The translations under genes were made by a program, and so were the position numbers. Source: Escherichia coli 042 (lineage in GTDB: Bacteria; Pseudomonadota; Gammaproteobacteria; Enterobacterales; Enterobacteriaceae). Taken from it: 64,000 nt of DNA. Below, in pieces: positions 8,384-50,490 of the stretch (positions within the stretch are counted from its first letter, which is position 1; each line of letters begins with the position of its first letter). The stretch lies in NCBI RefSeq assembly GCF_000027125.1, contig NC_017626.1; one strand, 5' to 3'. Below the pieces are notes generated by a model, which did no database searches, was not told the DNA's origin, and saw only the letters and a program-made list of their open reading frames with translations.

Positions 8384-8530
8384 ATGGCAAAGCCGATCAT
8401 CACGCTCAATGGCCTAAAAATCGTCATTATGTTGGGAATGCTGGTCATTATTCTCTGCGGTATCCGTTTTGCCGCCGAGATCATCGTGCCGTTTATTCTC
8501 GCATTATTTATTGCTGTTATATATAACTAA
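8384..8530 (+). pseudogene. tqsA: tqsA 5' fragment (codons 1–45) ending at the island junction
   Basis: Encodes [45 protein letters not shown] then IYN-stop from island DNA; remainder of tqsA resumes at 19546. Confidence 0.8.
8512..8520. repeat. attL core (TGCTGTTAT)
   Basis: Identical 9-mer at 19546..19554; lies at tqsA codons 44–46. Confidence 0.7.
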
Positions 8531-8591
8531 TTTCACTTAACGCATTGATTTAATTAAATGATTTGCACTACAAAAAGTGCCATAAATCGCA

Positions 8592-8650
8592 AAATGACTA
8601 CACCAGTGACTACACCGTTCGGTGCACTGTATGAAACAACGTGGAACAAA
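8592..8650. promoter_or_regulatory. arm-type repeat block (GACTACACC x2), homologous to block near attR
   Basis: atGACTACACCagtGACTACACCg plus shared flanking motifs, matching 19391..19460. Confidence 0.5.
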
Positions 8651-8929
8651 TAGACACAAGAAATATACAGGCGGGTCATCTTTCCAGGGGGAAGCGCGCT
8701 AATTCATGAGGGGCGTTAATGTTGATATGGGGATCCCCATAACGGGGCTACCGGATTTTTTTTCCGGTTAACTGTTAATCAGGCTGGTGGGCTTTACCTG
8801 TTTTGTAGGAGTGGTCATTATGACCATTCAGACAATGACCTTAATCAGAACTTTTCGCTAAAAAATGACGTTGGTCACGTCGTCCGGAAAGCACAAAATC
8901 CCGTCAATTTTTAATTAACGGTTAAACCG

Positions 8930-8990
8930 TCTTTTGTCACGGCGTGTCACTGGTTGTCACTCTCCGTCACGGTATGTCGCTACTCGTTAA
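8930..8990. repeat. helically phased TGTCAC/GTCAC array (about 5 copies)
   Basis: tgtcacggcgtgtcactggttgtcactctccgtcacggtatgtcgc, ~10–11 bp spacing; at 3' end of the leftmost island gene. Confidence 0.45.
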
Positions 8991-9268
8991 CGCCGTAACC
9001 GCTCCGGCTTCTTCCAGTGGTACGTAATTTTCTCCGTTTCCCGATACAGTGCCACGCGGCGATTGTAGGCCAGCATTTCAAGAACGCGGATCCGTATGTT
9101 GCGCATATCCACATCATTAAGCTGGATACCATCACGGCGCATCACCTCAGCAACCACACGCGCGTAATTTTCGGCGGTCACGCTGTCCGGCTGCGTGGCC
9201 TGTTCGTCATGCTGCTGGCTGATTCCGGTAACGCGGCGGATTAATCCCAGTAGTTCGGCTTCTGTCAT
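8987..9268 (-). CDS. hypothetical protein (93 aa)
   Basis: ORF 8987..9466 trimmed to Met MTEAELLG; upstream part of the track ORF is read-through of the cos repeat. Confidence 0.45.
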   Translation of the reverse strand: MTEAELLGLIRRVTGISQQHDEQATQPDSVTAENYARVVAEVMRRDGIQLNDVDMRNIRIRVLEMLAYNRRVALYRETEKITYHWKKPERLRR

Positions 9269-9301
9269 TGTGCCCCCATCGCTCTGATAGTCTGGTGTCG
9301 T

Positions 9302-9365
9302 CGGGTCCTTCCTGGAATTATGGCCCGTTACGGGGCGGCGACCTCGCGCGTTTTCACTATTTATG
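9302..9365 (+). other. lambda-type cos site, copy A (cosN GGGCGGCGACCT at 9333..9344)
   Basis: cgggtccttcc...gttacg|GGGCGGCGACCT|cgcgcgttttcactatttatgaaaattttt matches remembered lambda cosQ–cosN–left-end sequence. Confidence 0.75.
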
Positions 9366-9547
9366 AAAATTTTTCGGGATCCATGTCCGGTTTCTCTGCA
9401 AGTTAACCATATGAAAAATATAAAAACATGCTTTCCATGAACCGGACATGCGCAAAAAACAGACACTAAAACCGGACATCGAACCAGTTAACCGAAAGTG
9501 TGCACAAATCACATGCATTGCTGCGAGTGATTAACAAGTTATCGGCT

Positions 9548-9982
9548 TTACTGTTCTGTATCGGCTGATTGCTCCATGCTGGCACGGCGAACGCTTATGG
9601 CATGACGCCACCCAGCCAGAAAGCCAGCCATTTTATTTCGTGCCTTGCTCACATCTTCCGGTGAATAGCCGTAAATCTGCAAACCTTCATCAAATCGATG
9701 TTCTGTTTCTTCACTGGAGTACTCGTCACGCTCAGATGAAAGCAGCCTGGCAAACATAATTTTTTCCAGCGCACTGGTTTCTACGTGATATCTGATGGTC
9801 TCAAGACGGCTTTTACCTGAAGACCAAAGCAATGTATGCCCGATGTGATAACCGCCAGACTTTCCGCGATCCGCATTAAGATACGGCATCCCCTGTTTGG
9901 TCCATGCGCGAATAGTGGTTCTGTTAACCTTGAAATGTTCAGCTATTTCCTGCTGACTTACAAAACAAGCTTTATCAATCAT
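9548..9982 (-). CDS. Nu1-like small terminase homolog (N-terminal HTH); possible packaging-redirecting protein
   Basis: 144 aa; VSQQEIAEHFKVNRTTIRAWTKQGMP resembles lambda Nu1 VNKKQLADIFGASIRTIQNWQEQGMP; flanked by cos copies. Confidence 0.7.
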   Translation of the reverse strand: MIDKACFVSQQEIAEHFKVNRTTIRAWTKQGMPYLNADRGKSGGYHIGHTLLWSSGKSRLETIRYHVETSALEKIMFARLLSSERDEYSSEETEHRFDEGLQIYGYSPEDVSKARNKMAGFLAGWRHAISVRRASMEQSADTEQ

Positions 9983-10050
9983 AATGTTACCTTAACTGCA
10001 TGGTTAAATATTAATCAAGTGGTGGTGGTGTCACCTTCACGGAAAAACGT

Positions 10051-10114
10051 CATAAATAGCGAAAACCCGCGAGGTCGCCGCCCCGTAACGGGCCATAATT
10101 CCAGGAAGGACCCG
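10051..10114 (-). other. lambda-type cos site, copy B (cosN at 10072..10083), inverted relative to copy A
   Basis: Reverse complement is cgggtccttcctggaattatggcccgttacgGGGCGGCGACCTcgcgggttttcgctatttatg; ~90 bp upstream of the Nu1-like start. Confidence 0.75.
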
Positions 10115-10117
10115 TAA

Positions 10118-10138
10118 AAAAGCCGGATTTCTCCGGCC
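10118..10138 (-). terminator. rho-independent terminator after the 137-aa gene
   Basis: Minus strand gccggagaaatccggc followed by T-run; same hairpin recurs near 12390 and 12759. Confidence 0.6.
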
Positions 10139-10143
10139 TTGTC

Positions 10144-10557
10144 TCAGATGTTTTTCAGTATGCGATCGATGTCGCCGTCATCGCCCTGGTTTCTGCCATC
10201 GTATGCCATGCCAGCTGATACGGCTTGCGGGCTGTGCATGTCCATAAAGTTTTCAAAGGCTGCGGTAAGTTCCGGCGCAACCTTCGGACGTTCCTGCTCT
10301 ATGGTCATGCTAAGGATGCTTTTAGCCGTACCAACATCGATACAAGGCACGTTTGCCATTGCACGCAACAGCGGCTGATAGTCTTTATGCTCATGAAGCG
10401 CCATAATCGCATCAGCGCGCGGCTTGTCCTGCTCTTCCAGTTTGTTTAGTTGATGTACGGCCTCATAGGTTGATAAACCTCTGTCAGCCATTGCCCGCGC
10501 TTCGACTTTAAATTTACTCGCCAGCGGTAGCGTCATGATGCTTTCATTCGTTGCCAT
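10144..10557 (-). CDS. hypothetical protein (137 aa), last gene of capsid operon
   Basis: ORF; tightly packed after the gpD-like gene. Confidence 0.5.
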   Translation of the reverse strand: MATNESIMTLPLASKFKVEARAMADRGLSTYEAVHQLNKLEEQDKPRADAIMALHEHKDYQPLLRAMANVPCIDVGTAKSILSMTIEQERPKVAPELTAAFENFMDMHSPQAVSAGMAYDGRNQGDDGDIDRILKNI

Positions 10558-10569
10558 CGTTCCCCCTGC

Positions 10570-10905
10570 TTATCGGGCCAGCGGCTGAACGGATACGCCG
10601 GAACCCGCAAAGGCGGCGCATTTTTTCGCATCGGTGTCGACGCTCTCAGGCCAGTTAACGGCGGCAATATTGAATATCCCCGTCTTGTAACACTGTGCTG
10701 ATTTCTGCTTTGACGTGTCCACAGGGTACGAGGTCAGATAAACAGCCTTGCCAGATTCCTGACCATCCCACGGCTTAAACTCGCCATTGTCTGCCAGCAT
10801 CAGCGGGGTAAATTCCTGAATAACGCCAGCATCAGCGGCAAAATGTACCAACGTCGTGGATACCTGCTGACTGCCTGCAAATAACTCAATGTATGGAGTG
10901 TCCAT
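10570..10905 (-). CDS. head decoration protein, lambda gpD-like
   Basis: 111 aa; TPLMLADNGEFKPWDG...KTGIFNIAAVNWPESVDTDAKKCAAFAGSGVSVQ parallels lambda gpD (110 aa). Confidence 0.72.
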   Translation of the reverse strand: MDTPYIELFAGSQQVSTTLVHFAADAGVIQEFTPLMLADNGEFKPWDGQESGKAVYLTSYPVDTSKQKSAQCYKTGIFNIAAVNWPESVDTDAKKCAAFAGSGVSVQPLAR

Positions 10906-10917
10906 AGAATCCCCCCG

Positions 10918-11973
10918 TTAACCAATTTTGACGGTAACAAATTTGCGAATATCTGCCGGTACCGGCTGCGGTGCACTGTGTGTCTGCACGTACTCAATCG
11001 CCGGATCGCCGTCCTCAATCCAGTTTTTCGGGTAAAACATGTTTTGTGTTGCGCCCGTTCTTACCGCTTCCTGATCCATTATCGCACCATAGGCCACCAG
11101 CCCTTTATTGTTGGTGTTACCCAGGACCAGCAAATCAGGCTCAAGGAAATATTTTTCGGTACCATCGCTGTCAGTGTATTTGCCGGAATAGACGATAAGG
11201 GCCAGATCACCAAGATAGCCTTTAAAGCTCACCACTTCGCCCAGGTTTTTACAGGCCAGTTCGGCGGCGGATTCTGAACCACGGGAAAGATCGTACAGCT
11301 CACGGAATTTTTTAAAGCTGCGTAATGTGCGCCATACCTCAGCGCCCATAATCATGACGTTTGCGGGGCAACCAGCCTGATCAGCATAAAGCTCGATGTC
11401 ATAGATTGGGTCGTGCATGTCTTTATCCTGCTCGGACCATTTTTTACCCTTGGCCTGCTCTATGATGCAGTTTTCCGGTATTTTCCAGTCGATTTCATAG
11501 CGTTCTATGCCTTCGCCCTCAATGATGTTTTTTCCGGTCGTTACCGCATTCACCGCCAGCCATTCCACGCGTGCCTTAATGGCGTTTATCTGGCGGCGCA
11601 TGTTGCCAGTAATCAGGCGCATACGGCGATAGGTAGGGTCGTTAAGCTGTGCCGGATCTTCTCCAGCCATGCGCATGATGGTTTTCGTTGGATCGATTTC
11701 GTGCTTTGGCTTCATGTAGCCAGGTTTGATTGTGCTGGTTTCGTACCCTTTATCGCGCTGAACCTGGCTACCCACCATAGGCGAACAAAACGCCGACATG
11801 GTGACTTCTTCAATGTCCAGGGTATCCAGCATGATGTTTTGCGTGCTGAATGTCGCCACGTTCGGGAAAAACAGCGTGGTAAACAGAGGGCTGAATTTAA
11901 AATCCGCAATATCCCCGCGATTCAGGTACATGAAAAGCTGGTTAGTGTTAAGTGCCGTTGCTTTGCCTGCCAT
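10918..11973 (-). CDS. major capsid protein, lambda gpE family
   Basis: 351 aa (lambda gpE is 341 aa); adjacent to gpD-like gene. Confidence 0.75.
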   Translation of the reverse strand: MAGKATALNTNQLFMYLNRGDIADFKFSPLFTTLFFPNVATFSTQNIMLDTLDIEEVTMSAFCSPMVGSQVQRDKGYETSTIKPGYMKPKHEIDPTKTIMRMAGEDPAQLNDPTYRRMRLITGNMRRQINAIKARVEWLAVNAVTTGKNIIEGEGIERYEIDWKIPENCIIEQAKGKKWSEQDKDMHDPIYDIELYADQAGCPANVMIMGAEVWRTLRSFKKFRELYDLSRGSESAAELACKNLGEVVSFKGYLGDLALIVYSGKYTDSDGTEKYFLEPDLLVLGNTNNKGLVAYGAIMDQEAVRTGATQNMFYPKNWIEDGDPAIEYVQTHSAPQPVPADIRKFVTVKIG

Positions 11974-12212
11974 TATTCACCCCCATAATTTTTATGCATC
12001 CCAAGCGCCGCAAGTAAATAAGAGCGTACAAGTGAACCTATCGACGGCTCCGGCGTCATCAGCGGATCCAGTCCAGCCGCAACGCCAGCTTCATAGTTTT
12101 TTTTGTGGCGCTGCTTGAGCACCTCCACGATTTCGGGGCTTATGTACACCGAAACACCGCCTTTTTTCTCTTCAGCCATAGTAAGAAATTCCTCTTCGAC
12201 TAAAAAAATCAT
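11973..12212 (-). CDS. hypothetical protein (79 aa, or 68 aa from internal Met), first gene of capsid operon
   Basis: ORF; stop overlaps capsid start (ATGA). Confidence 0.45.
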   Translation of the reverse strand: MIFLVEEEFLTMAEEKKGGVSVYISPEIVEVLKQRHKKNYEAGVAAGLDPLMTPEPSIGSLVRSYLLAALGMHKNYGGE

Positions 12213-12235
12213 AACTGGATGTTTATCCAGTTATG
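12208..12235. promoter_or_regulatory. 12-bp inverted repeat (tcataactggat-gttt-atccagttatga) overlapping capsid-operon start codon
   Basis: Perfect 12-bp arms with 4-bp spacer; AT-rich region with further palindrome ttgcattttatgcaa just upstream. Confidence 0.5.
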
Positions 12236-12344
12236 ATTATAATCAGAATTGCATTTTATGCAATGATATTGAGTTATGTTGCAAATTATGAAATGATTAT
12301 CCCGATCACGAACGCCAGTGCATCCAAAAACCTCATATGCAAAA

Positions 12345-12410
12345 GCCCGATAAGAACCCTCTGACCTTATCGGGCTTTTTTTGGGCGCAAAAAAGCCGGA
12401 TTGCTCCGGC
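12345..12410. terminator. tandem hairpins (bidirectional terminator region, approximate)
   Basis: gcccgataag...cttatcgggc + T7, then aaaaaagccggattgctccggc. Confidence 0.55.
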
Positions 12411-12430
12411 TATGTGTGCTGTGTGCTGGC

Positions 12431-12655
12431 TCAGTCTCTGATCTCTTTCAGAAATTCTATCAATGCATCTATCTGTTCAGGATTTACCGCCAGCATTTCA
12501 CCGGATAGAGCACATCTCACAAAACCATGCTGATCCTTTTCAATCAGTGCGCCCGTCTCCAGGAATGCGCGGTAATCATTGATGCTCATCGTCTCCATGT
12601 TGTCAGCATGGTATTTATCACGCTGTTTTAATATCTCATCAAATTTCATCGGCAT
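12431..12655 (-). CDS. hypothetical protein (74 aa)
   Basis: ORF followed by terminator hairpin. Confidence 0.45.
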   Translation of the reverse strand: MPMKFDEILKQRDKYHADNMETMSINDYRAFLETGALIEKDQHGFVRCALSGEMLAVNPEQIDALIEFLKEIRD

Positions 12656-12758
12656 TGTTTTTTTCCTCTGTTGTGTCTGTTTGTTTCAGATAGTAACTAT
12701 GCCTGACCGTGACGAAAACCCGGTAATGCGCCATACCGTTTCAACTGGTGCAAAAAAA

Positions 12759-12774
12759 GCCGGATTTCTCCGGC
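12759..12774 (-). terminator. rho-independent terminator after PerC-like gene
   Basis: aaaaaaagccggatttctccggc. Confidence 0.6.
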
Positions 12775-12781
12775 TGTTTGA

Positions 12782-13054
12782 TTAGCTGTCCTGGTAATTG
12801 CGCCATATTTCATCACCAGCACCATCTATACCCATTTCGGCATAAGTGCGATCGACTGCCTTTTTCAGGTCTCCGAAATTATCCGGCGGCTCCGGTGCCC
12901 TCTGTGCCTTCCTTGAACATTCCAGCCGTCGCATCGTGATGTGATGCCGTTCCTTGTCTGTCTCCACCAGCTGCATGACTTCACCCCATCGCGCCGCCGC
13001 CCTCCGGTAAAAGCCTTTCGCCTCCAGTTCCTCCGCTATGCGGTCATGTACCAT
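12782..13054 (-). CDS. PerC-family transcriptional regulator-like protein
   Basis: ORF 12782..13174 trimmed to Met MVHDRIAEELEAKGFYRRAAARWGEVM, which resembles the PerC/Pch motif LExxGxWRRAAxRW. Confidence 0.55.
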   Translation of the reverse strand: MVHDRIAEELEAKGFYRRAAARWGEVMQLVETDKERHHITMRRLECSRKAQRAPEPPDNFGDLKKAVDRTYAEMGIDGAGDEIWRNYQDS

Positions 13055-13064
13055 CGTCACCCCC

Positions 13065-13475
13065 TCAGAACGAAATATCATCACCGTAAGGGTCATCGCC
13101 TCCCGCTGGTGGCTGATTACCCTGTGTGCCTGTGGTTTTGCGTCTGTTCCCGCCTGGACGTGCCGCGCGGGCACTGATTACGCTGTCTGCGATAACCTGC
13201 CAGCCCTGCCGCGTTTCTCCGTTCTGTCCGGTCCACTGGCTTACCTGCATCGTGCCGGATACGCTGGCAACATCGCCTTTTTGATGTTTAGCCAGGAAGT
13301 CGGCCTGTTTGCCAAATGCGATGACCGATAACCATAACGTCGCCTGTCCGTCCTGTGCCTGGCTGCATGGCAAAGATACCGCCATACGCGCCAGCGTCAT
13401 CGGTGTGCCCTTGCTGGTCTGTTTTACCTGCGGGTCGTCCACCAGCCGCCCGTAAGCGGCTATCTGTGCCGTCAT
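13065..13475 (-). CDS. ssb: single-stranded DNA-binding protein
   Basis: 136 aa; OB-fold segments parallel E. coli SSB; Gly/Pro-rich tail ending DDPYGDDISF (compare DFDDDIPF). Confidence 0.8.
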   Translation of the reverse strand: MTAQIAAYGRLVDDPQVKQTSKGTPMTLARMAVSLPCSQAQDGQATLWLSVIAFGKQADFLAKHQKGDVASVSGTMQVSQWTGQNGETRQGWQVIADSVISARAARPGGNRRKTTGTQGNQPPAGGDDPYGDDISF

Positions 13476-13753
13476 AATTCCACCTCTCCGGTTTTAACGT
13501 TGATGGTTGTTACCTGTTCCGCTTCGGCAATCTCCCGTTCTGTCAGCGTGGCAAAGTTTGCCGCCGCCGTGGTCATGAATGCGCTTATCAGGTCGGGATG
13601 TTCCTTCGCGTATCCTTCCCGCGTGTGGCGGTCTATCGTTCTGATTGCCACCTTTAAGGTGTGCTCAGTCATGTCTAACGCTTTATATTTTGGCTCTGTT
13701 CTGTCTCTGCGTTTTTGGGTCATTTCTCGCAACCTCTCACTTTTTCGCCTCAC
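13472..13753 (-). CDS. hypothetical protein (93 aa)
   Basis: ORF overlapping ssb start by 4 nt; 5' end overlaps iteron region. Confidence 0.4.
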   Translation of the reverse strand: MRRKSERLREMTQKRRDRTEPKYKALDMTEHTLKVAIRTIDRHTREGYAKEHPDLISAFMTTAAANFATLTEREIAEAEQVTTINVKTGEVEL

Positions 13754-13925
13754 TTTTTCAAGCGTCTCACTTCGTCGCAGTTGGGATTTTCGGTTTTTCT
13801 ATGTGTGTGTTTCATAAGTATTTTTTTACCCCTCACTTTTGAGGATGTATACAGGTCGAAAAGTGAGGGAGAGCGGGCTAATTTTGGCCCTCTTTCTATC
13901 CCCCTCGCTTTTGCTCCTCACTTTT
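13733..13925. repeat. candidate replication origin: CCTCACTTTT iterons (about 6 direct, 1 inverted) with AT-rich spacer
   Basis: Iterons at about 13733, 13748, 13764, 13829, 13859 (inverted), 13901, 13916; directly 3' of the replication ATPase gene. Confidence 0.6.
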
Positions 13926-15324
13926 ATAGCGGCGCTACATCATCCCCATCGATACGAATAACCCCATCTTTTTCCAGCTTGTACAGCCAGCGCCGGAAGT
14001 TTTTCATTTCATACCCCAGCTTTTTCATGTCATCACGTAACAGCGGGATCGTGCACTTGTCGCCGTTCTGTGTGCGTGAACGGATGCACCCCCATAGCGC
14101 GGTATGGTTTTCCGTCTTGTTCCCTGCCTCCTCGATGCGCTCCAGTTCAACAGGAGGGCGCGGATCATCCACCACCACCAGCGACGTGATTAATTCACCG
14201 TCAGCGTCGGTAAAAAGCTCCACCACGCGTAAGTCATATGCGGCTTCTTTGAGTTCCTCCGCGTCCTTCATTTTGGTGCATGAGATAACCAGCGCTTCGC
14301 TTCCTGCGTCCTCCCTGCGTATCCGGTATTCAGCATCCAGCGAAGCACGAAATGCACTGGAACCGCGCGCGCCTTTCGTCTCATCCTTGCCGGAATGGTG
14401 AACCACCAGCACCGTGGCCCCTGTGCGTCGTTTCAGTTCGTCACAACCACGGATAAACGCCCCCATATCACGGGAATCATTTTCATCATTCCCACCAAAG
14501 CAACGCGCCAGCGTATCCAGAATAATCATGCGTACAGGTTTACCCGTTTCCCGCTCCACCTGACGGGCAGCGATAACCATTTCATCAACATCAAGCGGGG
14601 CAGCCGGAAAGATGGGGCGGTTTACCAGATACAGATTTTTCACCTGCTCATCGTGCACAACCTCCCAGGCTTTTACACGACGCGGAACACCTATACCGCC
14701 TTCACCAACCACATAGAGAACCGCACCATGTGCAACCCTGCGGCCTCCCCACTGGCGACCAGTGGCAACATGGCACGCCCACGATCCAGCAAGGAATGAT
14801 TTATAGGACCCGCTAGCCCCGTATATGCTGCATAGCGATACCGCCGGAATAATCCCCTTAACCACGTAATCCAGTTGCGTGTCGTATCCGGTAGATCCAA
14901 CGCTCATCGGTAGCGTGGTTTTTCGCTGGTGTTTTTTTTCTTCCGCCGGCTCTTTCCCGCGCACCCGTTCCAGGTATTCGCGCCAGTTCTCCCGCATATG
15001 GCTGTGCATCCCTTCGGGGTAATAATTCGCATCAGTTACACCCGCCGCCGCCAGCTTGTGCGCAATGGCATTAATATTTGATGGCCTGATGTGGCCTGCC
15101 TTGTACAGCCGGACACAATAGCGCCCCTCGTCGATGATTCTCAGGTCTGCCAGTTCATCCAGTTGATCATCAGCCAGCACAACGGGAGGCACATTATCGC
15201 CAGCCAGTCGCCCGTCCTGTTCCTGCCACTGTTTCGCATGTGCCCAGGCATCACTACCCGCAAAAATAATGACTTCGGTCATCTTGTCGTAAGGCTGTTT
15301 TTTTAAGTTCGGTGCGCTTTTCAT
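13924..15324 (-). CDS. replication protein, RecA-fold ATPase / helicase-like (primase-replicase candidate)
   Basis: 466 aa; Walker A GASGSYKS, Walker B MIILDTLARCFGG, VLVVHHSGK motif typical of phage/plasmid RepA or DnaB-like ATPases. Confidence 0.75.
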   Translation of the reverse strand: MKSAPNLKKQPYDKMTEVIIFAGSDAWAHAKQWQEQDGRLAGDNVPPVVLADDQLDELADLRIIDEGRYCVRLYKAGHIRPSNINAIAHKLAAAGVTDANYYPEGMHSHMRENWREYLERVRGKEPAEEKKHQRKTTLPMSVGSTGYDTQLDYVVKGIIPAVSLCSIYGASGSYKSFLAGSWACHVATGRQWGGRRVAHGAVLYVVGEGGIGVPRRVKAWEVVHDEQVKNLYLVNRPIFPAAPLDVDEMVIAARQVERETGKPVRMIILDTLARCFGGNDENDSRDMGAFIRGCDELKRRTGATVLVVHHSGKDETKGARGSSAFRASLDAEYRIRREDAGSEALVISCTKMKDAEELKEAAYDLRVVELFTDADGELITSLVVVDDPRPPVELERIEEAGNKTENHTALWGCIRSRTQNGDKCTIPLLRDDMKKLGYEMKNFRRWLYKLEKDGVIRIDGDDVAPL

Positions 15325-15620
15325 TTCTTGCCCCTGAATCCGTTAACCATGGTTTTCAGCTTCTGGATGTTTGCCCGTGCCCTGGCGTTGCTGGTGGGCA
15401 CGTTATGCGGCGCGGTCTGTACCAGAGAAAAATCACGCCGGAACTGATAAACAGGCATCACGCAATCATATTCGTAACCTTCACGGCGGTAGGTTACGCG
15501 CCGTTCTTCCACGTCCTTAATCATTACCGTGCCGCCGTACTGGTCGCGGTAAATATCACCGCGCGTAAATTTAGGGTGAGTGTTGCCACTGGCAGTTAAG
15601 CCAGAATATTTAAGTTTCAT
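15321..15620 (-). CDS. hypothetical protein (99 aa)
   Basis: ORF overlapping rep start by 4 nt. Confidence 0.45.
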   Translation of the reverse strand: MKLKYSGLTASGNTHPKFTRGDIYRDQYGGTVMIKDVEERRVTYRREGYEYDCVMPVYQFRRDFSLVQTAPHNVPTSNARARANIQKLKTMVNGFRGKK

Positions 15621-15625
15621 TATTT

Positions 15626-15859
15626 TTATTCTCCGGTGTGCTGTTCTTTATATCTGTCGTGCAATAGATCTATTTCTTGCAGTTCCATTATTACAGGCTC
15701 AAGAAGCGTTATTAATGCTGTGGCAATTCTTGATTTTTGTTTGTCGCGTTCATTGTCGCCAAGTGTTTCAAGCCATATGCGCAATATTTCCATCATGTTT
15801 TCACTGTGAGAAAGTGCAAGAAATGCGCGGTCTATTGTTTGGTGGTAAATATCACGCAT
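15626..15859 (-). CDS. hypothetical protein (77 aa)
   Basis: ORF in operon context. Confidence 0.4.
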   Translation of the reverse strand: MRDIYHQTIDRAFLALSHSENMMEILRIWLETLGDNERDKQKSRIATALITLLEPVIMELQEIDLLHDRYKEQHTGE

Positions 15860-16319
15860 GGCTTACATCCTCAGGAAATTTTCTTCTATAACGCGCCTCT
15901 GCCACATATTCCGCATAATCGGCGGCGATATTCAGTACATCAAGCCCCGTTGATTTATATTCTCTCGTGGAAAGTAAGAAAAAAGCCGCTCTAATAAGTT
16001 CTGGCATTGACGAAAGCGCATCAGCCGCATCATCAGGAACGCCGGAAAATTCCTGTTTCAGGGAATTAAAACGATCATCACGCATAACCCCCCCCCCATT
16101 TTCACAATCAGCAATCAGGATAGCTTTGGCCTCATTCAGCGCCGTATCAGCACTAAATTGCATGACAGCCAGTGAGTGAGGAACGAAAGCACCGGCATAT
16201 TCTGTTTCGCTGGTGGCGTGCTTATGTGCCCTGTCCGCGATAACAGAAATATCAATCAGCGCGTGCATCAGCGTTTTGATGGCTTCGGCGGCTGCGTCCG
16301 GTGTGGTTTTATTGTGCAT
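15852..16319 (-). CDS. hypothetical protein (155 aa) containing a G10 homopolymer
   Basis: ORF; codons GGG-GGG-GGG at 16088..16097. Confidence 0.45.
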   Translation of the reverse strand: MHNKTTPDAAAEAIKTLMHALIDISVIADRAHKHATSETEYAGAFVPHSLAVMQFSADTALNEAKAILIADCENGGGVMRDDRFNSLKQEFSGVPDDAADALSSMPELIRAAFFLLSTREYKSTGLDVLNIAADYAEYVAEARYRRKFPEDVSHA

Positions 16320-16521
16320 AAAGCATCCCCTGAATATTCGTGTTAATCATTCCGGCACGTTTTGTGATTTCCTGTAATGATTCCCTTGTGGCGACAATTG
16401 CTTCATCTGGTAAGTGGTAATTACACACCACGCGACCTTTATCCACATTGACCAGTAGCTGCCCTGTGAATTTCTCACGAAACTGAATGCGGTTAAGGTC
16501 AGTAAGTGACAGATTAATCAT
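16309..16521 (-). CDS. hypothetical protein (about 70 aa from internal Met MINLSL)
   Basis: ORF 16309..16563 starts at GTG; ATG at 16521 is the likelier start. Confidence 0.4.
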   Translation of the reverse strand: MINLSLTDLNRIQFREKFTGQLLVNVDKGRVVCNYHLPDEAIVATRESLQEITKRAGMINTNIQGMLYAQ

Positions 16522-16711
16522 GGCGCACCTCCTGACGAATACGGGCGGCAAATACAGCAACACAACCGGACGGGCAACGGTTACGCGCTTCGCGTTCCGT
16601 CCAGGCGGTTACGTGGATGATTTGAGATTCTCCGGCACTCAGTGCCAGAAAACGCCACACAAAGGCCGTTTGTGTGTGTACAAGGTGTGGTATATGATTT
16701 ACAGCAACCAT
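16514..16711 (-). CDS. hypothetical small protein (about 65 aa), first gene leftward of regulatory region
   Basis: ORF 16514..16786 trimmed to Met MVAVNH. Confidence 0.3.
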   Translation of the reverse strand: MVAVNHIPHLVHTQTAFVWRFLALSAGESQIIHVTAWTEREARNRCPSGCVAVFAARIRQEVRHD

Positions 16712-16803
16712 AACGGCTCCTAGTTTACGTTGTTGGTTAGAAGCCCTGCGAGTGGTAACGACACTTGCGGGGCTTTGTCTTTTCATCGATTACCTTGATA
16801 AAG

Positions 16804-16884
16804 GTGTCAGCCACTATATTAGTAACGGGTGTCAGCCACGTCAATAGTGTTTTTCCGTTTTCTTGTGTGTATACTGTCAGCCAC
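16804..16884. promoter_or_regulatory. divergent regulatory region with three direct repeats GTCAGCCAC
   Basis: Repeats at 16806..16814, 16831..16839, 16876..16884; tatact box and aggaaa RBS precede the plus-strand small gene. Confidence 0.6.
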
Positions 16885-16905
16885 CTAATAACGAGGAAAT
16901 CAGAT

Positions 16906-17085
16906 ATGGCAACAAAAGCAGTTAATGCAAAATCCAAAAAGCTTGAGGCTCGAGTACCACACGCAATAGCTGATGCTGTAGAAAATTTAAAGGAAGATGG
17001 CGAAAGTACAGGGCAATTTATCGTTTCGGCACTTGAAGGCGAGATCAAACGCCGCCAGCGCCGCAAGGCCAAAGAATCAGAATAA
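16906..17085 (+). CDS. small ribbon-helix-helix-like DNA-binding protein (59 aa), candidate island regulator
   Basis: KKLEARVPHAIADAVENLKEDGESTGQFIVSALEGEI resembles Arc/CopG RHH; transcribed divergently from the leftward gene block. Confidence 0.5.
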   Translation: MATKAVNAKSKKLEARVPHAIADAVENLKEDGESTGQFIVSALEGEIKRRQRRKAKESE

Positions 17086-17127
17086 TCACTATCAGCGCCG
17101 TGGTGTGAGGTATTACGGCGCATTGCT

Positions 17128-17316
17128 ATGCAGGACAACACAATGACCGATAAAGAATTGACCAAAACATTATCACCGGCACGGAAAAGACGGCGCAGAA
17201 AGATAGAGCATGAATCAGAAAGATTCGCACCATGTGCTTTTGCCCTTGAGCAATTCCTTAAAGAGTACAGGGAAAAGCGCTCATTGCAGGTATGGCAACG
17301 AACTGAACCAGACTGA
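17128..17316 (+). CDS. hypothetical basic small protein (62 aa)
   Basis: ORF downstream of RHH gene; Arg/Lys-rich. Confidence 0.35.
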   Translation: MQDNTMTDKELTKTLSPARKRRRRKIEHESERFAPCAFALEQFLKEYREKRSLQVWQRTEPD

Positions 17317-17394
17317 TTGCATTGCCCACCAGCCTGATAGCGGCTATCATCCCCGTGCTTATGTTTGGGATCACACACACAAACGGCGCAGCGG

Positions 17395-17430
17395 GTTATC
17401 TGTTCAGAAAGGCGGCTCCATTTCGGGGCC
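17395..17430 (+). terminator. candidate terminator of the plus-strand pair (approximate)
   Basis: ggcggctccatttcggggccgc followed by tttttta. Confidence 0.45.
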
Positions 17431-17585
17431 GCTTTTTTTATACCTGAAAAACCCCAATTTTGTTGTTTTTCAGTTTCACCAGGGCGAACGAATCCCCGCC
17501 CACGTTCTGGCGTATATTCAATCTTCATGGTTATAGCTCTGTGTTCAGATGATTGATGTGTGGCGGCTGCGTGCCGCCAGCGTGA

Positions 17586-17774
17586 TTAATGAACTGCCTT
17601 GCAGCTATCCTTCCAGGCCAGAACCTCGGATAAAGACCAGCCAACGGAACGACCGCCAAGTTTACGACGTGATGGGAATTGTCCGGCCTTTTCCAGGCGG
17701 TAGCGACACGTACGGCTAAGGCCGGTTAGTTTTTCGCATTCTTTTTCACGTATAAACCGATCAGTGCTTAACAC
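17586..17774 (-). CDS. alpA: AlpA-family phage transcriptional regulator / excisionase-like
   Basis: 62 aa; LTGLSRTCRYRLEKAGQFPSRRKLGGRSVGWSLSEVLAW matches AlpA HTH pattern. Confidence 0.8.
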   Translation of the reverse strand: MLSTDRFIREKECEKLTGLSRTCRYRLEKAGQFPSRRKLGGRSVGWSLSEVLAWKDSCKAVH

Positions 17775-18140
17775 TATTGCCCCCCCTTTCGTTTCTTAAA
17801 GAGTCATCAGGTGTCTTATTGTGTCGTATTGTTCCCGCTAGAGTGATGAATGGCAAATATTGAGGATGTATGATTTACAGAAAATGAAACAGTAAGAATA
17901 AAATCTTTTAAATTCATGTTAATACAAAGGCATAAAATATTGTTTCATGCCTTTTTTCTCGCTCTTTAAAGAGTGATTCGCTAGTGTATAAAAAACCAGT
18001 GACACATTAAAAATCAGCCACTTATAAATCTGTATGCTTTTTCGCCTCTTGTTCGTGGTTGTTCCACATTGTTGCTCATTGTTGCACGTTGTATCTGTTC
18101 GCATATACAGTATGCGCATACTGAAAAAACACGAAAAAAA

Positions 18141-19370
18141 TTATTTTCTTCTGGCTACTGGTAGCGTGGTTACGTTTTCATGTGTTCCCGCCAGTATCCC
18201 TAACCGCTCCGTCCACATATCCAGCGCATTGCGTTTAGCATCCAGATAACGGGAATGATTATAAACTCGCTGCATTCCTGGCATCTGGTGGCCTGTAAGC
18301 TGCTCCACGACATGCGGATCAACGCCTAAATCGTTCAGCATGGTTGTAAAGGTGCGCCGGATGTCATGCAGTGACCAGTGAGGATGATTAAGCCTCCTGT
18401 GCGCTAATCTTCCATACTGCGATACGCTGGCCTCCTGTTTCACTTCCCCCAGCAATAAGCCCGTGTGCCTGTTCTGCTCCACCAGCTGCGTGACGAACGG
18501 CAGGATCGCTTCCGGTATGGGCCGGAATATTGCGACCTTCGTTTTGCTGTGCTCCTTCGGAACGGTCCATAGCATTTCCGTAAAATCCCACTCCCCGATC
18601 TCCGATAACCTCAGTTCTACCGTTCTGGCTCCGAAGACAATCAGGAGGCGGATTAACGCGACGTAGTAAGGGGAGAATATTTTTTTGTCCAGTGCCTGCA
18701 ATAATTCGCCAAGTTCTTTGTTACTTAAGACACGTTCGCTTATATCCGGTTTTTTCCCAACGTCCGCCACGTTCAGATCGTCCAGAACGTTGCTGATTGC
18801 ATAGCGCCGCCTACGGCAGAACTTAAGCGCCTGTTTGCACGCCTGTAGCACGAATCCGGCAGTAACAGGCGTTCGCTTTGCCACCTGGTCAAAACAGGCC
18901 AGCCAGTGCCGTAGCTCGCATTTATCCAGCGGCATAGCACCAATCTGCTGTATTACGTGATTATTAAGTCGCCTTTTCAGGGCGATATAATCCACGCGGT
19001 TTTCCTTTACGTAATACTCAAGCCAGTAGGTGAGCGCATCGCCAACCGTTACCGGCTTTAACGCTTCCTGTACGGTGTAATTAAGCTCATGACGTGGATT
19101 TTTCCCCTCTGCCAGCCATGCGCGACACTGGGCGGCTTTTTCCCTGGCTGATTTCAGGCTCAGATCAGGATAACTTCCCAGCTTAATGCGTTCGGGTCGT
19201 GTCTCCCTTCCCGTTCCGGCCCTGTATGTGAAATACCAGGTCAATTTCCCTGATGTTAAATATTTCACGCTCAGGTTTCCGCCATCACTATAAAACGTGT
19301 TTTTCTCCGCTGGCTTACCATGAAGTTTCCTTAGCAAGGTATCGCTCAGTTTGTTCATTGCTCTGCTCAC
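18141..19370 (-). CDS. int: tyrosine site-specific integrase (P4-like, N-terminal arm-binding domain)
   Basis: 409 aa; C-terminal HDIRRT...GHQ...VYNHSRY catalytic motifs; adjacent to attR. Confidence 0.9.
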   Translation of the reverse strand: MSRAMNKLSDTLLRKLHGKPAEKNTFYSDGGNLSVKYLTSGKLTWYFTYRAGTGRETRPERIKLGSYPDLSLKSAREKAAQCRAWLAEGKNPRHELNYTVQEALKPVTVGDALTYWLEYYVKENRVDYIALKRRLNNHVIQQIGAMPLDKCELRHWLACFDQVAKRTPVTAGFVLQACKQALKFCRRRRYAISNVLDDLNVADVGKKPDISERVLSNKELGELLQALDKKIFSPYYVALIRLLIVFGARTVELRLSEIGEWDFTEMLWTVPKEHSKTKVAIFRPIPEAILPFVTQLVEQNRHTGLLLGEVKQEASVSQYGRLAHRRLNHPHWSLHDIRRTFTTMLNDLGVDPHVVEQLTGHQMPGMQRVYNHSRYLDAKRNALDMWTERLGILAGTHENVTTLPVARRK

Positions 19371-19390
19371 GTTTTACCCCCTCTTTACGA

Positions 19391-19460
19391 AAAAGTGACT
19401 ACACCAGTGACTACACCGATCGTTGCACAAAGGGCTACAACGTGAAACAAGCTGGAACAA
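19391..19460. promoter_or_regulatory. arm-type repeat block (GACTACACC x2) between int start and attR
   Basis: gtGACTACACCagtGACTACACCg at 19397..19417, homologous to 8592..8650. Confidence 0.5.
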
Positions 19461-19545
19461 GGAAAATCACAAATCTGTTGATAATCAAAAACATAATGCA
19501 CAGCCTGAAACATTATGAAACAGCAAAAAACACCAAATGATAAAA

Positions 19546-19554
19546 TGCTGTTAT
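19546..19554. repeat. attR core (TGCTGTTAT)
   Basis: Identical to 8512..8520; in-frame stops TGA TAA immediately upstream. Confidence 0.7.
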
Positions 19555-20452
19555 TCTTAACCCGCTGGTGCAACACATGGTCCGCTGGCGAGTGCCGCGT
19601 GTACTGGCGGTGTCGATTTTGATGACCATCATCGTGATGGCGATGGTGTTGCTGTTAGCTTATCTGGGTTCCGCGCTCAACGAGTTGACGCGGACGTTAC
19701 CGCAATATCGCAACTCTATTATGACGCCGCTGCAAGCGATTGAACCGTTGTTGCAACGCGTAGGGATTGATGTCTCAGTTGACCAACTGGCGCATTACAT
19801 TGATCCGAACGCGGCGATGACGTTGCTCACCAACTTATTGACGCAGTTATCTAATGCCATGTCATCAATATTTTTATTGCTGCTGACGGTGCTGTTTATG
19901 CTGCTCGAAGTGCCACAATTGCCCGGAAAATTTCAGCAAATGATGGCGCGTCCGGTTGAAGGGATGGCGGCGATTCAGCGTGCGATTGACAGTGTTTCTC
20001 ATTATCTGGTGCTGAAAACAGCCATCAGCATCATCACCGGCCTGGTCGCCTGGGCGATGCTCGCCGCACTCGATGTTCGCTTCGCTTTTGTCTGGGGATT
20101 GCTGGCCTTTGCGCTTAATTACATCCCTAATATTGGTTCAGTTCTCGCAGCAATTCCCCCTATCGCTCAGGTACTGGTGTTTAATGGCTTCTACGAAGCG
20201 TTGTTGGTGCTGGCGGGATATCTGCTGATTAATCTGGTCTTCGGCAATATTCTGGAGCCGCGCATCATGGGACGTGGGCTGGGGCTTTCGACATTGGTGG
20301 TATTTTTGTCGTTGATTTTTTGGGGATGGTTGTTAGGACCGGTGGGTATGCTGCTTTCCGTGCCGTTGACAATTATTGTCAAAATTGCGCTTGAACAAAC
20401 AGCGGGAGGTCAAAGCATCGCCGTTCTGTTAAGCGATCTCAATAAAGAGTGA
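19546..20452 (+). pseudogene. tqsA: tqsA 3' portion (codons 44–344), separated from its start and promoter by the island
   Basis: In-frame continuation [14 protein letters not shown]...; track ORF 19568..20452 begins at an internal GTG. Confidence 0.8.
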
Positions 20453-48593: not shown

Positions 48594-49634
48594 TCACGCA
48601 AGGCACAGCGTCGCGCGATGTTTGGCGGATTCGATGCCCAGCTCAATCAACTCCATTACCTGGATTGCCTGACTTGCCGGAACAGGATTTTCACCATCGC
48701 CATTTAACGCATCACGAATAGCCGCATAGTAAGCCGGATAATTCCCTGGTACTGTCAACAGCGTTTCTTCGACACGTTCCTCACCTTCCACGCGGGTAAG
48801 TACGCCATCACGCATATCGTAGCCCCAGTCTTCCTGCGGCAGACGCTCGCCATTTTTCAGACGTTCTTCCTGTGGATCGAGGCCATATTTCACATAACTG
48901 CCTCGGGATCCATGCACGATATAACGTGCTGACTCAGCGGCTGCCAGCATGGTGCCGTGTAAAATGACTCGCCGCTGCGGATAGGACAAGATGGCGTGGA
49001 AATAATCAGTCGACTGCGCTCCGGGCCGTAACTGTGCCAAATCTACCGTCATGCTAACCGGTAAACCAAATAGCGTAATGGCCTGATCAAGAAGATGCGG
49101 TGCTAAATCGTACCAGATACCGCTGCCAGGGCCGCCCTGTTCACGCCAACGATCGCGCACCTGCGGACGGAAGCGGTCAAAATGAGACTCAAAGTAAGCA
49201 ACTTCACCCAGTACGCCTTCCGCGAGCAAACCTTTTAGCGTCAGGAAATCGCTATCCCAGCGACGGTTATGGAATACAGACAGCACAAGCCCCAGGCTTT
49301 TTGCCAGCGCTTCCAGCTCTCGCGCTTGCGACAGTGTCACGGTAAAGGGTTTATCAACGACCACATGTTTACCCGCCTCAAGCGCCGCTTTGGCTAACGG
49401 GAAATGGGTATCGTTGGGTGTAGGGATGACAATCAGGTCTATGTTGGGATCGTTAAACAGATGCTTCGGCTCAGAGACAACCGTAACCGTTGGCCAGTCG
49501 GCTTTTACTTTTGTTTCATCGCTGCTGGAGATTACCGCCAGTTCCAGCCCGGGCGTGCCCGCAATCAGGGGCGCATGGAAGGTTTTGCTCGCATAACCAT
49601 ACCCAATCAACCCAACACGGATGTTGTCGCTCAT
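48594..49634 (-). CDS. ydgJ: Gfo/Idh/MocA-family oxidoreductase
   Basis: ORF 48594..49673; K-12 YdgJ starts MSDNIRVGLIGYG (346 aa). Confidence 0.9.
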   Translation of the reverse strand: MSDNIRVGLIGYGYASKTFHAPLIAGTPGLELAVISSSDETKVKADWPTVTVVSEPKHLFNDPNIDLIVIPTPNDTHFPLAKAALEAGKHVVVDKPFTVTLSQARELEALAKSLGLVLSVFHNRRWDSDFLTLKGLLAEGVLGEVAYFESHFDRFRPQVRDRWREQGGPGSGIWYDLAPHLLDQAITLFGLPVSMTVDLAQLRPGAQSTDYFHAILSYPQRRVILHGTMLAAAESARYIVHGSRGSYVKYGLDPQEERLKNGERLPQEDWGYDMRDGVLTRVEGEERVEETLLTVPGNYPAYYAAIRDALNGDGENPVPASQAIQVMELIELGIESAKHRATLCLA

Positions 49635-49876
49635 GTCATTGCCTCTCATTGAAGTATGATGGCTATTTGACACTATCCTTTACCCTCGCTCAACAGTTTA
49701 ATAACCTGCCAGCAATAAGGGATGTTGTTTAACTTAAGTCAAAAAAATAGCGAATTTTCCAACGACAAAAGCTAAATATCGCAAAAACCTCAGTAAAAAT
49801 CTTGCTGGAGCTATTATTGCTAAGTAACATTTACCCCCTGAAGTTAATGGATCAATCAACAGAGATGTGGGCTGTA

Positions 49877-50002: not shown

Positions 50003-50274
50003 GCTCTACGCTTGTAGAGCGACATGCTGGCCGACCGGGTGCATGTTTTAACTTGTCGGATATTAAACCAGGAATTTATTATCTTGTTCGATGTTGTTGG
50101 TGATTGTCAGGGATAGTAAAGCGCGTTACTCTTTTCAGAGCAGTTTTTCATCCCTGAATATTTGCCATCAGCGCATTCTTATTATTGTAATAATACAAAC
50201 GTTCACTTTTGGTGAAATTTTATCATCACTAATAATACCTACCCCTTTGGTATTAATTATTTTATGGATCTTTT

Positions 50275-50490
50275 ATGACTGTTCAGGACTACTTATTAAA
50301 ATTTCGCAAAATCAGTTCACTCGAAAGTCTGGAAAAACTCTACGACCATCTTAATTACACCCTGACGGACGATCAGGAACTGATCAATATGTATCGTGCT
50401 GCCGATCACCGTCGCGCAGAGCTGGTTTCTGGCGGCCGTTTGTTTGACCTCGGCCAGGTACCGAAGTCCGTCTGGCACTATGTCCAATAA
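50275..50490 (+). CDS. cnu: Hha-family nucleoid-associated protein Cnu
   Basis: 71 aa matching remembered YdgT/Cnu. Confidence 0.9.

Follow-up and report, generated by a model that had tools for sequence, protein, structure and literature searches.

The locus raised the question of which gene is served by a short AT-rich gap between the genes int and alpA of Escherichia coli 042 (NC_017626.1), and through which elements. The stretch of DNA that was analysed, referred to below as the window, was 64,000 nucleotides long, and the gap occupied positions 17775-18140 of it. The order on the minus strand was int, gap, alpA, which placed the gap 3' of int and 5' of alpA. A preliminary description had noted an AT-rich spacer of ~365 bp with a repeated motif and a 16-bp palindrome, and had offered it as a candidate site for AlpA-dependent control of int or for int termination. 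The spacer was found as described (366 bp, with a GC content of 34.7% against 50.2% for the window). Based on all comparisons, we propose that alpA is controlled in cis from the gap, within the int-alpA module of a phage-inducible chromosomal island (PICI) of the Gram-negative type; a probability of about 0.6 was assigned to this reading, together with the mechanism set out below.

The element was assigned to the Gram-negative PICIs by its layout. It measured about 11 kb (11.0 kb, within the PICI size of ~10-15 kb; limits ~8521-19554) and was inserted at a specific att site in tqsA, next to pntBA; tqsA was split in annotated relatives. The ends were marked by a 9-bp direct repeat, the unstranded core identity block TGCTGTTAT at 19546-19554, which was repeated at 8512-8520. 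Most genes pointed in one direction, int being followed by a co-oriented alpA (PF05930), and the gene content comprised int, alpA, a RepA-type helicase (AAA_25, 13924-15324), a single-stranded DNA-binding protein (SSB), a major capsid protein, a decoration protein, a connector and terS. The replication gene was followed by two iteron sets that flanked an AT-rich stretch, and a location 3' of the rep gene is that reported for PICI origins (PMC6092414). Helper-phage induction and high-frequency transfer have been demonstrated in the relatives EcCICFT073, EcCIEDL933 and EcCIMP1. The master activator of Gram-negative PICIs, which parasitise phages, is alpA. In EcCICFT073, AlpA activates the alpA promoter (PalpA) and not the int promoter (Pint), and alpA is switched on by helper phages, not by the SOS response (PMC6092414); EcCIMP1 was reported to be regulated in the same way, and its excision also required alpA (PMC11773190). 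Because the gap lies 3' of int and AlpA was inactive on Pint in EcCICFT073, control here is expected to act on alpA and not on int; of the AlpA-dependent control site proposed earlier, the tie of a regulatory region to AlpA was thus kept, and its target was replaced.

For the comparison, 14 diverged E. coli copies and 69 IMG/VR loci were used, which yielded 57 distinct gap sequences. Their identity to the window went down to ~62%, and two sequence groups were formed. The conservation profile was based on 13 representatives, clustered at 95% identity. The predicted features were told apart by their conservation and not by chance statistics. A word-indexed protein search also retrieved 19 AlpA relatives; the gaps of the distant ones were dropped from the comparison, an extra gene being present there between int and alpA. 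On the minus strand, the int stop codon was followed by T-tracts, the 16-bp palindrome, a series of RAACAAY boxes, a consensus for integration host factor (IHF) and a block of ~30 bp with copy 2 of the repeated motif. An A6 tract, a 9-bp hairpin, the tail UUUGUAUU, the blocks ATGAATTTAAA and TTCTGTAAA, a promoter, proximal boxes, motif copy 1, the Shine-Dalgarno sequence and the GTG start codon of alpA came next. The spacings within this module were nearly fixed despite the divergence: 28-30 bp from the last box to the IHF consensus, 168-170 bp from the latter to the -35 hexamer and 81-82 bp from the hairpin to the -35 hexamer. Changes in gap length were restricted to the number of boxes, in steps of 10 bp, and the distance from the -35 hexamer to motif copy 1 was 39, 49, 54, 59 or 69 bp among the relatives.

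The main features of the gap were the phased boxes that recur at the att sites, the IHF consensus, a terminator-like hairpin and the proposed promoter, and not the palindrome. Five RAACAAY boxes at an exact spacing of 10 bp formed a distal array at 18047-18098 on the minus strand (plus-strand TTGT at 18049, 18059, 18069, 18079 and 18089), which we regard as a candidate AlpA array. The box consensus was RAACAAYGWG, and five or six unbroken boxes were recorded in 46 of the 57 distinct gaps, the other 11 showing chains of 2+3, 2+2, 3 or 4. Four TTGT at exact 10-bp spacing were present at only two loci in the 64 kb, where 0 were expected: the gap itself and 19427-19460. The latter belonged to the int-proximal att arm (19394-19475, minus strand), on the promoter side of int (19371-19560), where a fifth TTGT lay 12 bp upstream of the four and two tandem 12-mers GGTGTAGTCACT of the arm type (19394-19417) lay 13 bp from the TTGT boxes. 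The far att arm (8593-8659, minus strand) had three TTGT at 10-bp spacing (8636-8659), followed by two arm-type 12-mers (8593-8616). Thus, on both arms the boxes were located between the core and the arm-type sites of the integrase, as direct repeats about one helical turn (exactly 10 bp) apart, which is the arrangement of arrays for directionality factors. Both arm modules, phased TTGT and two 12-mers, were kept in three PICIs with different cargo (the window island, L001 and L087). Two further boxes, AACAATACGACACAAT (17818-17833, minus strand), lay next to alpA over the -10 hexamer and the start site of the proposed promoter; up to four degenerate ones were seen there in relatives.

Recombination directionality factors have sites that are directly repeated at intervals of one helical turn, and Apl of phage 186 binds both att and a promoter region (PMC7498355). 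Filament-forming winged-helix proteins place one protomer per turn of DNA (PMC11963761). The 62-aa product of alpA (17586-17774, minus strand, GTG start; PF05930, E=5e-17) modeled as an excisionase-type winged helix. The AlphaFold model had a pLDDT of 86, and its top structural matches were the GIsul2 excisionase 8c3t (TM 0.83-0.90), RdfS, Pukovnik Xis, TorI and BldC, the excisionase entries of the PDB among the matches being 8c3t, 8dgl, 4j2n and 1z4h. The predicted protein is accordingly small and of the Xis/TorI/RdfS fold, and the AlpA of Vibrio PICMI was likewise reported to resemble TorI and Xis, with a suggested place in the excision complex (PMC10803314). AlpA was the only small winged-helix protein of the conserved int-alpA module. 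Since one-turn repeats at both att and a promoter mark bifunctional directionality factors, and since AlpA was the only such protein in the module, the boxes were read as AlpA sites. The best reading of the sequence is that AlpA acts as an excisionase and autoregulator similar to Cox, Apl and Vis, with the boxes as its candidate sites.

The likeness to P2 Cox, 186 Apl and P4 Vis lies in a small DNA-binding protein encoded beside its regulatory region and in one-turn direct repeats at att and a promoter region (PMC7498355). P4 Vis is a homologue of AlpA, and three tandem 10-bp repeats are present upstream of vis in P4. Unlike in those systems, the box sequence here was RAACAAY and the sites are predicted ones; further, arrays were found here on both att arms, and an IHF site separated the promoter from a distal array ~200 bp away. 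Apl and Cox act mainly as repressors. Unlike these two, AlpA was reported to be a positive autoregulator (PMC6092414).

The IHF site was predicted at 18012-18024 on the plus strand, where AATCAGCCACTTA matched the consensus WATCARNNNNTTR and was preceded by an A/T-rich stretch on its 5' side. The match was located at the same aligned position in 56 of the 57 gaps, its specified bases being invariant and its N positions variable; the chance of a match in one gap-like sequence was 0.073. A promoter scan pointed to PalpA at 17828-17856 on the minus strand, with a -35 hexamer TTGCCA (17856-17851), a spacer of 17 bp and a -10 hexamer AACAAT (17833-17828). The pattern TTGCCA-N17-(A/C)ACAAT was present in all 57 gaps despite a 10-bp indel between the hexamers, and the alpA transcript would start near 17821. 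Two short conserved blocks preceded it on the same strand: ATGAATTTAAA at 17907-17917 (about -86 to -96 from the proposed start) and the highly conserved TTCTGTAAA at 17874-17882 (about -53 to -61), a candidate activator site. The best-conserved part of the gap was the ~30-bp block TTTTTATACACTAGCGAATCACTCTTTAAA (17994-17965, minus strand), which ended in motif copy 2 and was delimited as 17962-17994 to include CTCTTTAAAGAG. Candidate targets of the helper-phage signal are TTCTGTAAA near -57, ATGAATTTAAA near -91 and the block with motif copy 2. By inspection, neither an Ogr/Delta-type TGT-N12-ACA nor a CRP site, a lambda CII TTGC-N6-TTGC or a sigma-54 promoter fitted the aligned sequences.

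The suggestion of int termination was borne out in part, as the gap held a terminator-like structure other than the palindrome. It consisted of an A6 tract, a 9-bp stem GGCAUGAAA/UUUUAUGCC (17951-17943 and 17937-17929), a 5-nt loop and the tail UUUGUAUU (17921-17957 in all, minus strand), and was read as a putative 3' terminator or insulator of int. The stem contained 3 G-C pairs, the folding energy (dG) was -9.5 to -13.8, and the 61-nt segment around it folded far better than its shuffles did (minus strand, z -4.62; plus strand, z -3.30). The pairs of 19 distinct variants were counted by script, as the MAFFT alignment mis-registered the two sequence groups. Non-Watson-Crick pairs were nearly all G·U in the minus-strand RNA, which corresponds to A·C in the plus-strand RNA; the G·U changes concerned five pair positions and 19 cells of the count, and pair 4 ran through A-U, G·U and G-C, giving one compensatory pair. 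As the G·U changes are specific to the minus-strand RNA, they argue for selection on the sense transcript, the 3' end of int. Termination or insulation of int transcripts by this hairpin is plausible.

The following sequence of events was proposed. The int transcripts would extend beyond the stop codon by ~190 nt and terminate at the hairpin 17929-17951 and its U-tract, which would insulate alpA. The latter would be transcribed from a weak sigma-70 promoter, TTGCCA-N17-AACAAT (17856-17828), as its conservation suggests. AlpA would bind the RAACAAY boxes head-to-tail, one helical turn apart, at five distal boxes and two at the promoter, and the same boxes would be used on both att arms beside the arm-type sites of the integrase. 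The IHF site and the fixed spacings suggest an IHF-bent nucleoprotein complex that could bring the distal array to the promoter and so give positive autoregulation, as shown experimentally in related PICIs. The arrays on the att arms would let AlpA direct excision together with Int.

Several observations weigh against this proposal. Every assignment of an element rests on sequence and comparison. Because all 57 sequences came from one int/alpA lineage, covariation of boxes and protein was beyond their reach, and in more distant relatives a gene separated int from alpA and the repeats upstream of alpA differed. The distal array lay ~225-280 bp from the proposed start, a distance at which activation requires looping, and the proximal boxes overlapped the -10 hexamer and the start, a position that is usual for repression and not for activation. 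The first T was missing from the -10 hexamer of PalpA, and 35-44 of the 57 copies had another promoter-like site, TTAACA-16-TATTCT. The favoured model offers no explanation for the central block of ~30 bp or for two further blocks of high conservation. The hairpin was not called by a simple terminator scan, a miss that was probably due to the pairing of its A and U tracts; the U-tract was modest, and the tail UUUGUAUU was kept in 48 of the 57 copies, the other 9 having tails of the UACUAC type. Finally, the invariant A6 tract is a U6 tail on the plus strand, so that use of the hairpin on the plus strand or in both directions is possible.

The gap did not belong to one island only. Among 5426 complete E. 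coli genomes, 878 (about one in six) carried the int-gap-alpA module, the O157/O55 lineage included. Over 801 bp around the gap, the window was 100% identical to the O55:H7 strain USDA5905, where the module heads a different island, a capsid-forming PICI (cf-PICI) that has a DUF5906 primase instead of the RepA helicase and is of the EcCIEDL933 type (bioRxiv 10.1101/2022.09.08.507074). The module therefore moves between islands as a unit, since an identical copy heads an island with different cargo. The module and both att arms were also common to the window island, L001 and L087, among which modular exchange was clear; the islands that share it replicate with a RepA helicase or a DUF5906 primase and package with capsid, decoration and terS genes or with a full capsid-forming set. 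In IMG/VR contigs, the module was found at other integration sites as well.

Among the alternatives, it is unlikely, if conceivable, that the boxes are extra arm-type sites of the integrase, or sites for a host protein or for the helper inducer. They do adjoin the arm-type sites on both att arms, and their assignment to AlpA is predicted from sequence. However, the arm-type sequence is a different 12-mer, GGTGTAGTCACT, arranged in tandem pairs as in P4. The int gene (18141-19370, minus strand) encodes a P4-type tyrosine integrase of 409 aa (Pfam Arm-DNA-bind_3 and Phage_integrase; annotated as tyrosine-type recombinase), and the 12-mer co-varied with the N-terminal variant of Int (GTCACT against GTTAAT), while the TTGT boxes remained unchanged. 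Accordingly, in the IMG/VR loci L022, L025, L070 and others, GGTGTAGTCACT was replaced by GGTGTAGTTAAT together with a different N-terminal sequence of Int and a different int ribosome-binding region. The 12-mers were taken to behave as arm-type sites because each arm had a tandem pair of them, in agreement with the P4 annotation, and because they co-varied with the Int variant. The ACAAY/TTGT boxes differ from both GGTGTAGTCACT and GGTGTAGTTAAT and showed no such covariation. Small winged-helix directionality factors are, moreover, characterised by one-turn direct repeats (PMC7498355, PMC11963761), and AlpA was the only such protein in the conserved module.

It was considered improbable that the two copies of the repeated motif TTAAAGAGT are AlpA operators that control int and that the 16-bp palindrome is the int terminator, as the preliminary description had implied. 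Both features were present. On the plus strand, copy 1 read tcTTAAAGAGTcAT at 17795-17807 and copy 2 read cTTTAAAGAGTgAT at 17964-17977; the extended 19-nt copies shared 79% identity, and their starts were separated by 170 bp (given earlier as ~165 bp). Copy 1, ATGACTCTTTAAGAAA on the minus strand (17792-17807), lay in the alpA leader, and its ACTCTTT was invariant in all 57 gaps. Copy 2 was partly conserved: GAATnACnC was invariant in its block, but ACTCTTTAA was retained in only 23 of the 57 gaps. It is itself a perfect 12-bp palindrome CTCTTTAAAGAG (17962-17973), and some variants (CGCTTTAAAGCG) preserved this dyad through symmetric substitutions, and others had lost it. The motif ACTCTTTAAR was over-represented, with 3 occurrences in the 64 kb where 0.09 were expected; the third (ACTCTTTAAG, 17257-17266, minus strand) was 530 bp away within the plus-strand open reading frame (ORF) 17128-17316. 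In a 72%-identical relative, two copies of a related heptamer, ATCACTC, preceded alpA. A direct repeat of an exact 9-mer was obtained in ~44% of simulated 366-bp sequences of the composition of the gap, so that the repeat alone was not significant. The copies were unphased at their distance of 170 bp and were missing from the att arms; the motif is conserved, but nothing tied it to AlpA, for which the ACAAY/TTGT boxes, absent from the preliminary description, are better candidates.

The palindrome CAGTATGCGCATACTG (18108-18123, unstranded) was located 17 bp after the int stop codon, just 3' of int as described, and had no second copy in the window. A perfect palindrome of at least 16 bp was seen in ~1% of gap-like simulations (P≈0.01), and the window held 3 against ~1.6 expected. 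It was perfect in 34 of the 57 gaps and had one mismatch in 3, and the other 20 had an extra ACAAC box in its place; group B showed no conservation. There was no T-run next to it on either strand, and its RNA fold was no better than that of shuffles (z -1.4 and -1.8). With no T-run, a non-significant fold and its absence from a third of the gaps, the palindrome is not the int terminator; it is a lineage-specific feature. The role of terminator was left to the hairpin.

The hairpin itself could serve the plus strand and end an RNA of ~48 nt from TTTACA-N17-(A/G)ATAAA (17874-17902), divergent from alpA, although the odds of this were put low. The element TTTACAGAA was invariant, its spacing to (A/G)ATAAA was held at 16-17 bp, the U6 tail was invariant, and the plus-strand fold stood at z -3.3. 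Against this, nearly all variant pairs other than Watson-Crick ones are G·U in the minus-strand RNA and A·C mismatches in the plus-strand RNA, and the -10 element lacked the critical last T. A permissive Rfam search of 16500-20000 returned nothing relevant, and the NCBI pipeline had placed no annotation in the gap in any of 871 genomes.

A bolder form of the favoured mechanism was regarded as a long shot: the gap would be a fixed-geometry, intasome-like complex of an AlpA filament and an IHF bend, in physical contact with the arrays of the att arms. The array of the gap and that of the int-proximal arm, with int between them, had the same boxes, inverted relative to each other. If the complex existed, bridging of the arrays would place int in a loop and link excision with the positive-feedback switch of alpA, and the helper trigger might, unlike a classical activator, perturb the architecture through IHF, H-NS, supercoiling or a factor at the conserved blocks. 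In the intasome of lambda-type attP, tandem arm-type sites are likewise found on both arms, with phased sites for a small protein between the core and the arm-type sites and with a conserved IHF consensus in a region of constrained spacing. Unlike in lambda attP, the IHF site and the largest array lay here 1.3 kb from the core, in a promoter region, and arrays were present on both arms. The Xis sites of lambda are located on the P arm only.

That the phased repeats are iterons of a replication origin for the replication protein of the island, as in phage P4, was thought very improbable. In the P4 record, the origin lies directly upstream of vis, with ori repeats of 8 bp and 10 bp; it consists of three tandem 10-bp type 2 repeats and of TGTTCACC type 1 repeats at ~10-11 bp, the TGTTC of which resembles the plus-strand TTGTTC boxes of the gap, and two repeat sets border the gap, which is AT-rich. 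However, the island had its own iterons, of the type AAAGTGAGG, at 13740-13925, arranged as two sets around an AT-rich stretch immediately 3' of the gene for the RepA-type helicase, where the origins of PICIs lie (PMC6092414). The identical gap served a cf-PICI with a DUF5906 primase, which means that the repeats travel with int/alpA and not with the replicon. Since the boxes, which were also present on both att arms beside the arm-type sites, differed in sequence from both the 12-mers and the AAAGTGAGG iterons and travelled with int/alpA, they were taken to be neither arm-type sites nor origin iterons.

Last, AlpA is most unlikely to be a Q-like antiterminator that permits read-through into alpA of a short terminated RNA from a promoter in the central block, for although alpA is separated from a highly conserved block by a conserved hairpin, a weak promoter-like TTTAAT/TTTATA-17-TACACT was seen upstream of it in 12 of the 57 gaps and the AlpA system of Pseudomonas aeruginosa, in which a processive antiterminator has its site embedded in the promoter and a terminator lies downstream, has the same layout (PMC7969949), the upstream site was not conserved, the P. 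aeruginosa AlpA has eight helices, a Q-like fold and a C-terminal helix-turn-helix at about residues 128-142 (PMC9371919), and the 62-aa PICI AlpA gave no PDB sequence match to it and was modeled with the fold of an excisionase. The two systems share the protein name and a terminator-like hairpin upstream of the regulated gene, with the ABE, the sigma-dependent pause and the terminator tB on the side of P. aeruginosa; the proteins are unrelated in fold and size, no conserved promoter was present here upstream of the hairpin, and the 62-aa AlpA does not belong with Q-type antitermination units.

The cis-regulatory reading of the gap agrees in genetic position with PalpA of EcCICFT073 and EcCIMP1, which is located in the same int-alpA interval and where alpA is the master activator, helper-induced and positively autoregulated. 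Those studies employed reporters of the whole interval, and a map at the level of elements is given here; no cis-elements of the alpA control region were described in the literature that was searched. The kind of system, a bifunctional excisionase and regulator with IHF, is known, and the element map for PICIs appears to be new. The way in which helper phages activate alpA was posed as an open question in the literature (PMC6092414, PMC10803314). A base-level map of the candidate AlpA boxes, the IHF site, the putative terminator, the proposed promoter and three blocks makes the question of the helper switch directly testable, the three unexplained conserved blocks being natural places to seek the helper-phage signal. 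The map further predicts that AlpA is both excisionase and autoregulator via one type of box, in a module that serves classical and capsid-forming islands alike.

Other features of the gap were recorded as well. The T-tracts TTTTTTTCGTGTTTTTT (18124-18140, minus strand) directly after the int stop codon were at least 90% conserved in the 13 representatives; on the plus strand they are two A-tracts 10 bp apart, which suggests an intrinsic bend. Two ORFs inside the gap were rejected: a 66-aa ORF (17919-18119) had no Pfam match, was not conserved and was missing its start context in group B, and a 33-codon ORF from an ATG at 17917 ended after two codons in group B. A LexA-like CTGT-N8-ACAG, TACTGTATATGCGAACAGAT (18094-18113, minus strand), on the flank of the palindrome was shared by only 2 of the 57 gaps, most of which read CTGG, and is probably fortuitous; its rarity fits the published SOS independence of alpA. 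An IHF consensus at the motif copies had two mismatches and was rejected by inspection. The TTAAAG core of the motif recalls what we take to be the P2 Cox boxes of P4, which we regard as a lead and not as a test. A blastn search of a phage database with the gap gave no match, and an AlpA scan of contigs of representative genomes, which lack the island, returned only two unrelated loci.

The alpA Shine-Dalgarno sequence AAAGGGGGGG (17780-17789, minus strand) contained a G-run of polymorphic length (17780-17786), with 7 G here and 2 to 7 among the relatives, so that the spacing between the Shine-Dalgarno and the start shifts. The CUCUUU of motif copy 1 was predicted to pair with its AAAGGG, and a similar CUUUUU/AAAGAG pairing was possible before int. 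A leader structure that hides the Shine-Dalgarno sequence and the GUG start was predicted and then set aside, as the leader fold was no better than chance (z -1.06); copy 1 may act as an anti-Shine-Dalgarno sequence, for which the evidence is weak. In PICIs with an AlpA 68-72% identical (L088, 2455-2500, and L092, 2425-2477), an extra gene of 257-302 aa lay between int and alpA, and a strong hairpin of 8-12 bp had the alpA Shine-Dalgarno in its 3' arm; in L092, ATAGTGATATCACTC was also directly repeated just upstream, the two copies being 22 bp apart. The cf-PICI relative L001 had two additional ACTCTTTAAG copies (13530-13539 and 13758-13767), one per duplicated ylcI-like gene.

On the other side of alpA, the main operon of the island was headed by a good minus-strand promoter at 16844-16816 (TTGACG 16844-16839, 17 bp, TAATAT 16821-16816), surrounded by three minus-strand copies of GTGGCTGACA (16884-16875, 16839-16830 and 16814-16805). 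Judged by its sequence, this region resembles a repressor-operator switch, although Gram-negative PICIs reportedly have no known repressor. Small divergent ORFs on the plus strand, assigned to the YlcI/YnfO family in a relative, ended at a strong plus-strand terminator at 17411-17439 (region 16765-17440). The annotation of a relative places there a hypothetical protein of 247 aa without a Pfam match (16785-17528, minus strand), which overlaps the small plus-strand ORFs and the terminator; this ORF may be a mis-call, and alpA would then be convergent with the plus-strand genes.

Two more phased arrays were noted in the window. Three AACAA-like boxes at 10-bp spacing, GACAATCACCAACAACATCGAACAAG (50083-50108, minus strand), lay in a core-genome intergenic region upstream of rsxA, between a ydgJ-like ORF (48594-49673) and a 71-aa ORF (50275-50490), and are probably due to chance. 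Five GTCAC, the last of them GTCGC, were located at exact 10-bp spacing at 8936-8985, just 3' of terS. Besides those of the TTGT/ACAA arrays, this was the only 4-mer phased at least four times in the whole window, and the array could be a packaging (pac) site or a TerS-binding site.

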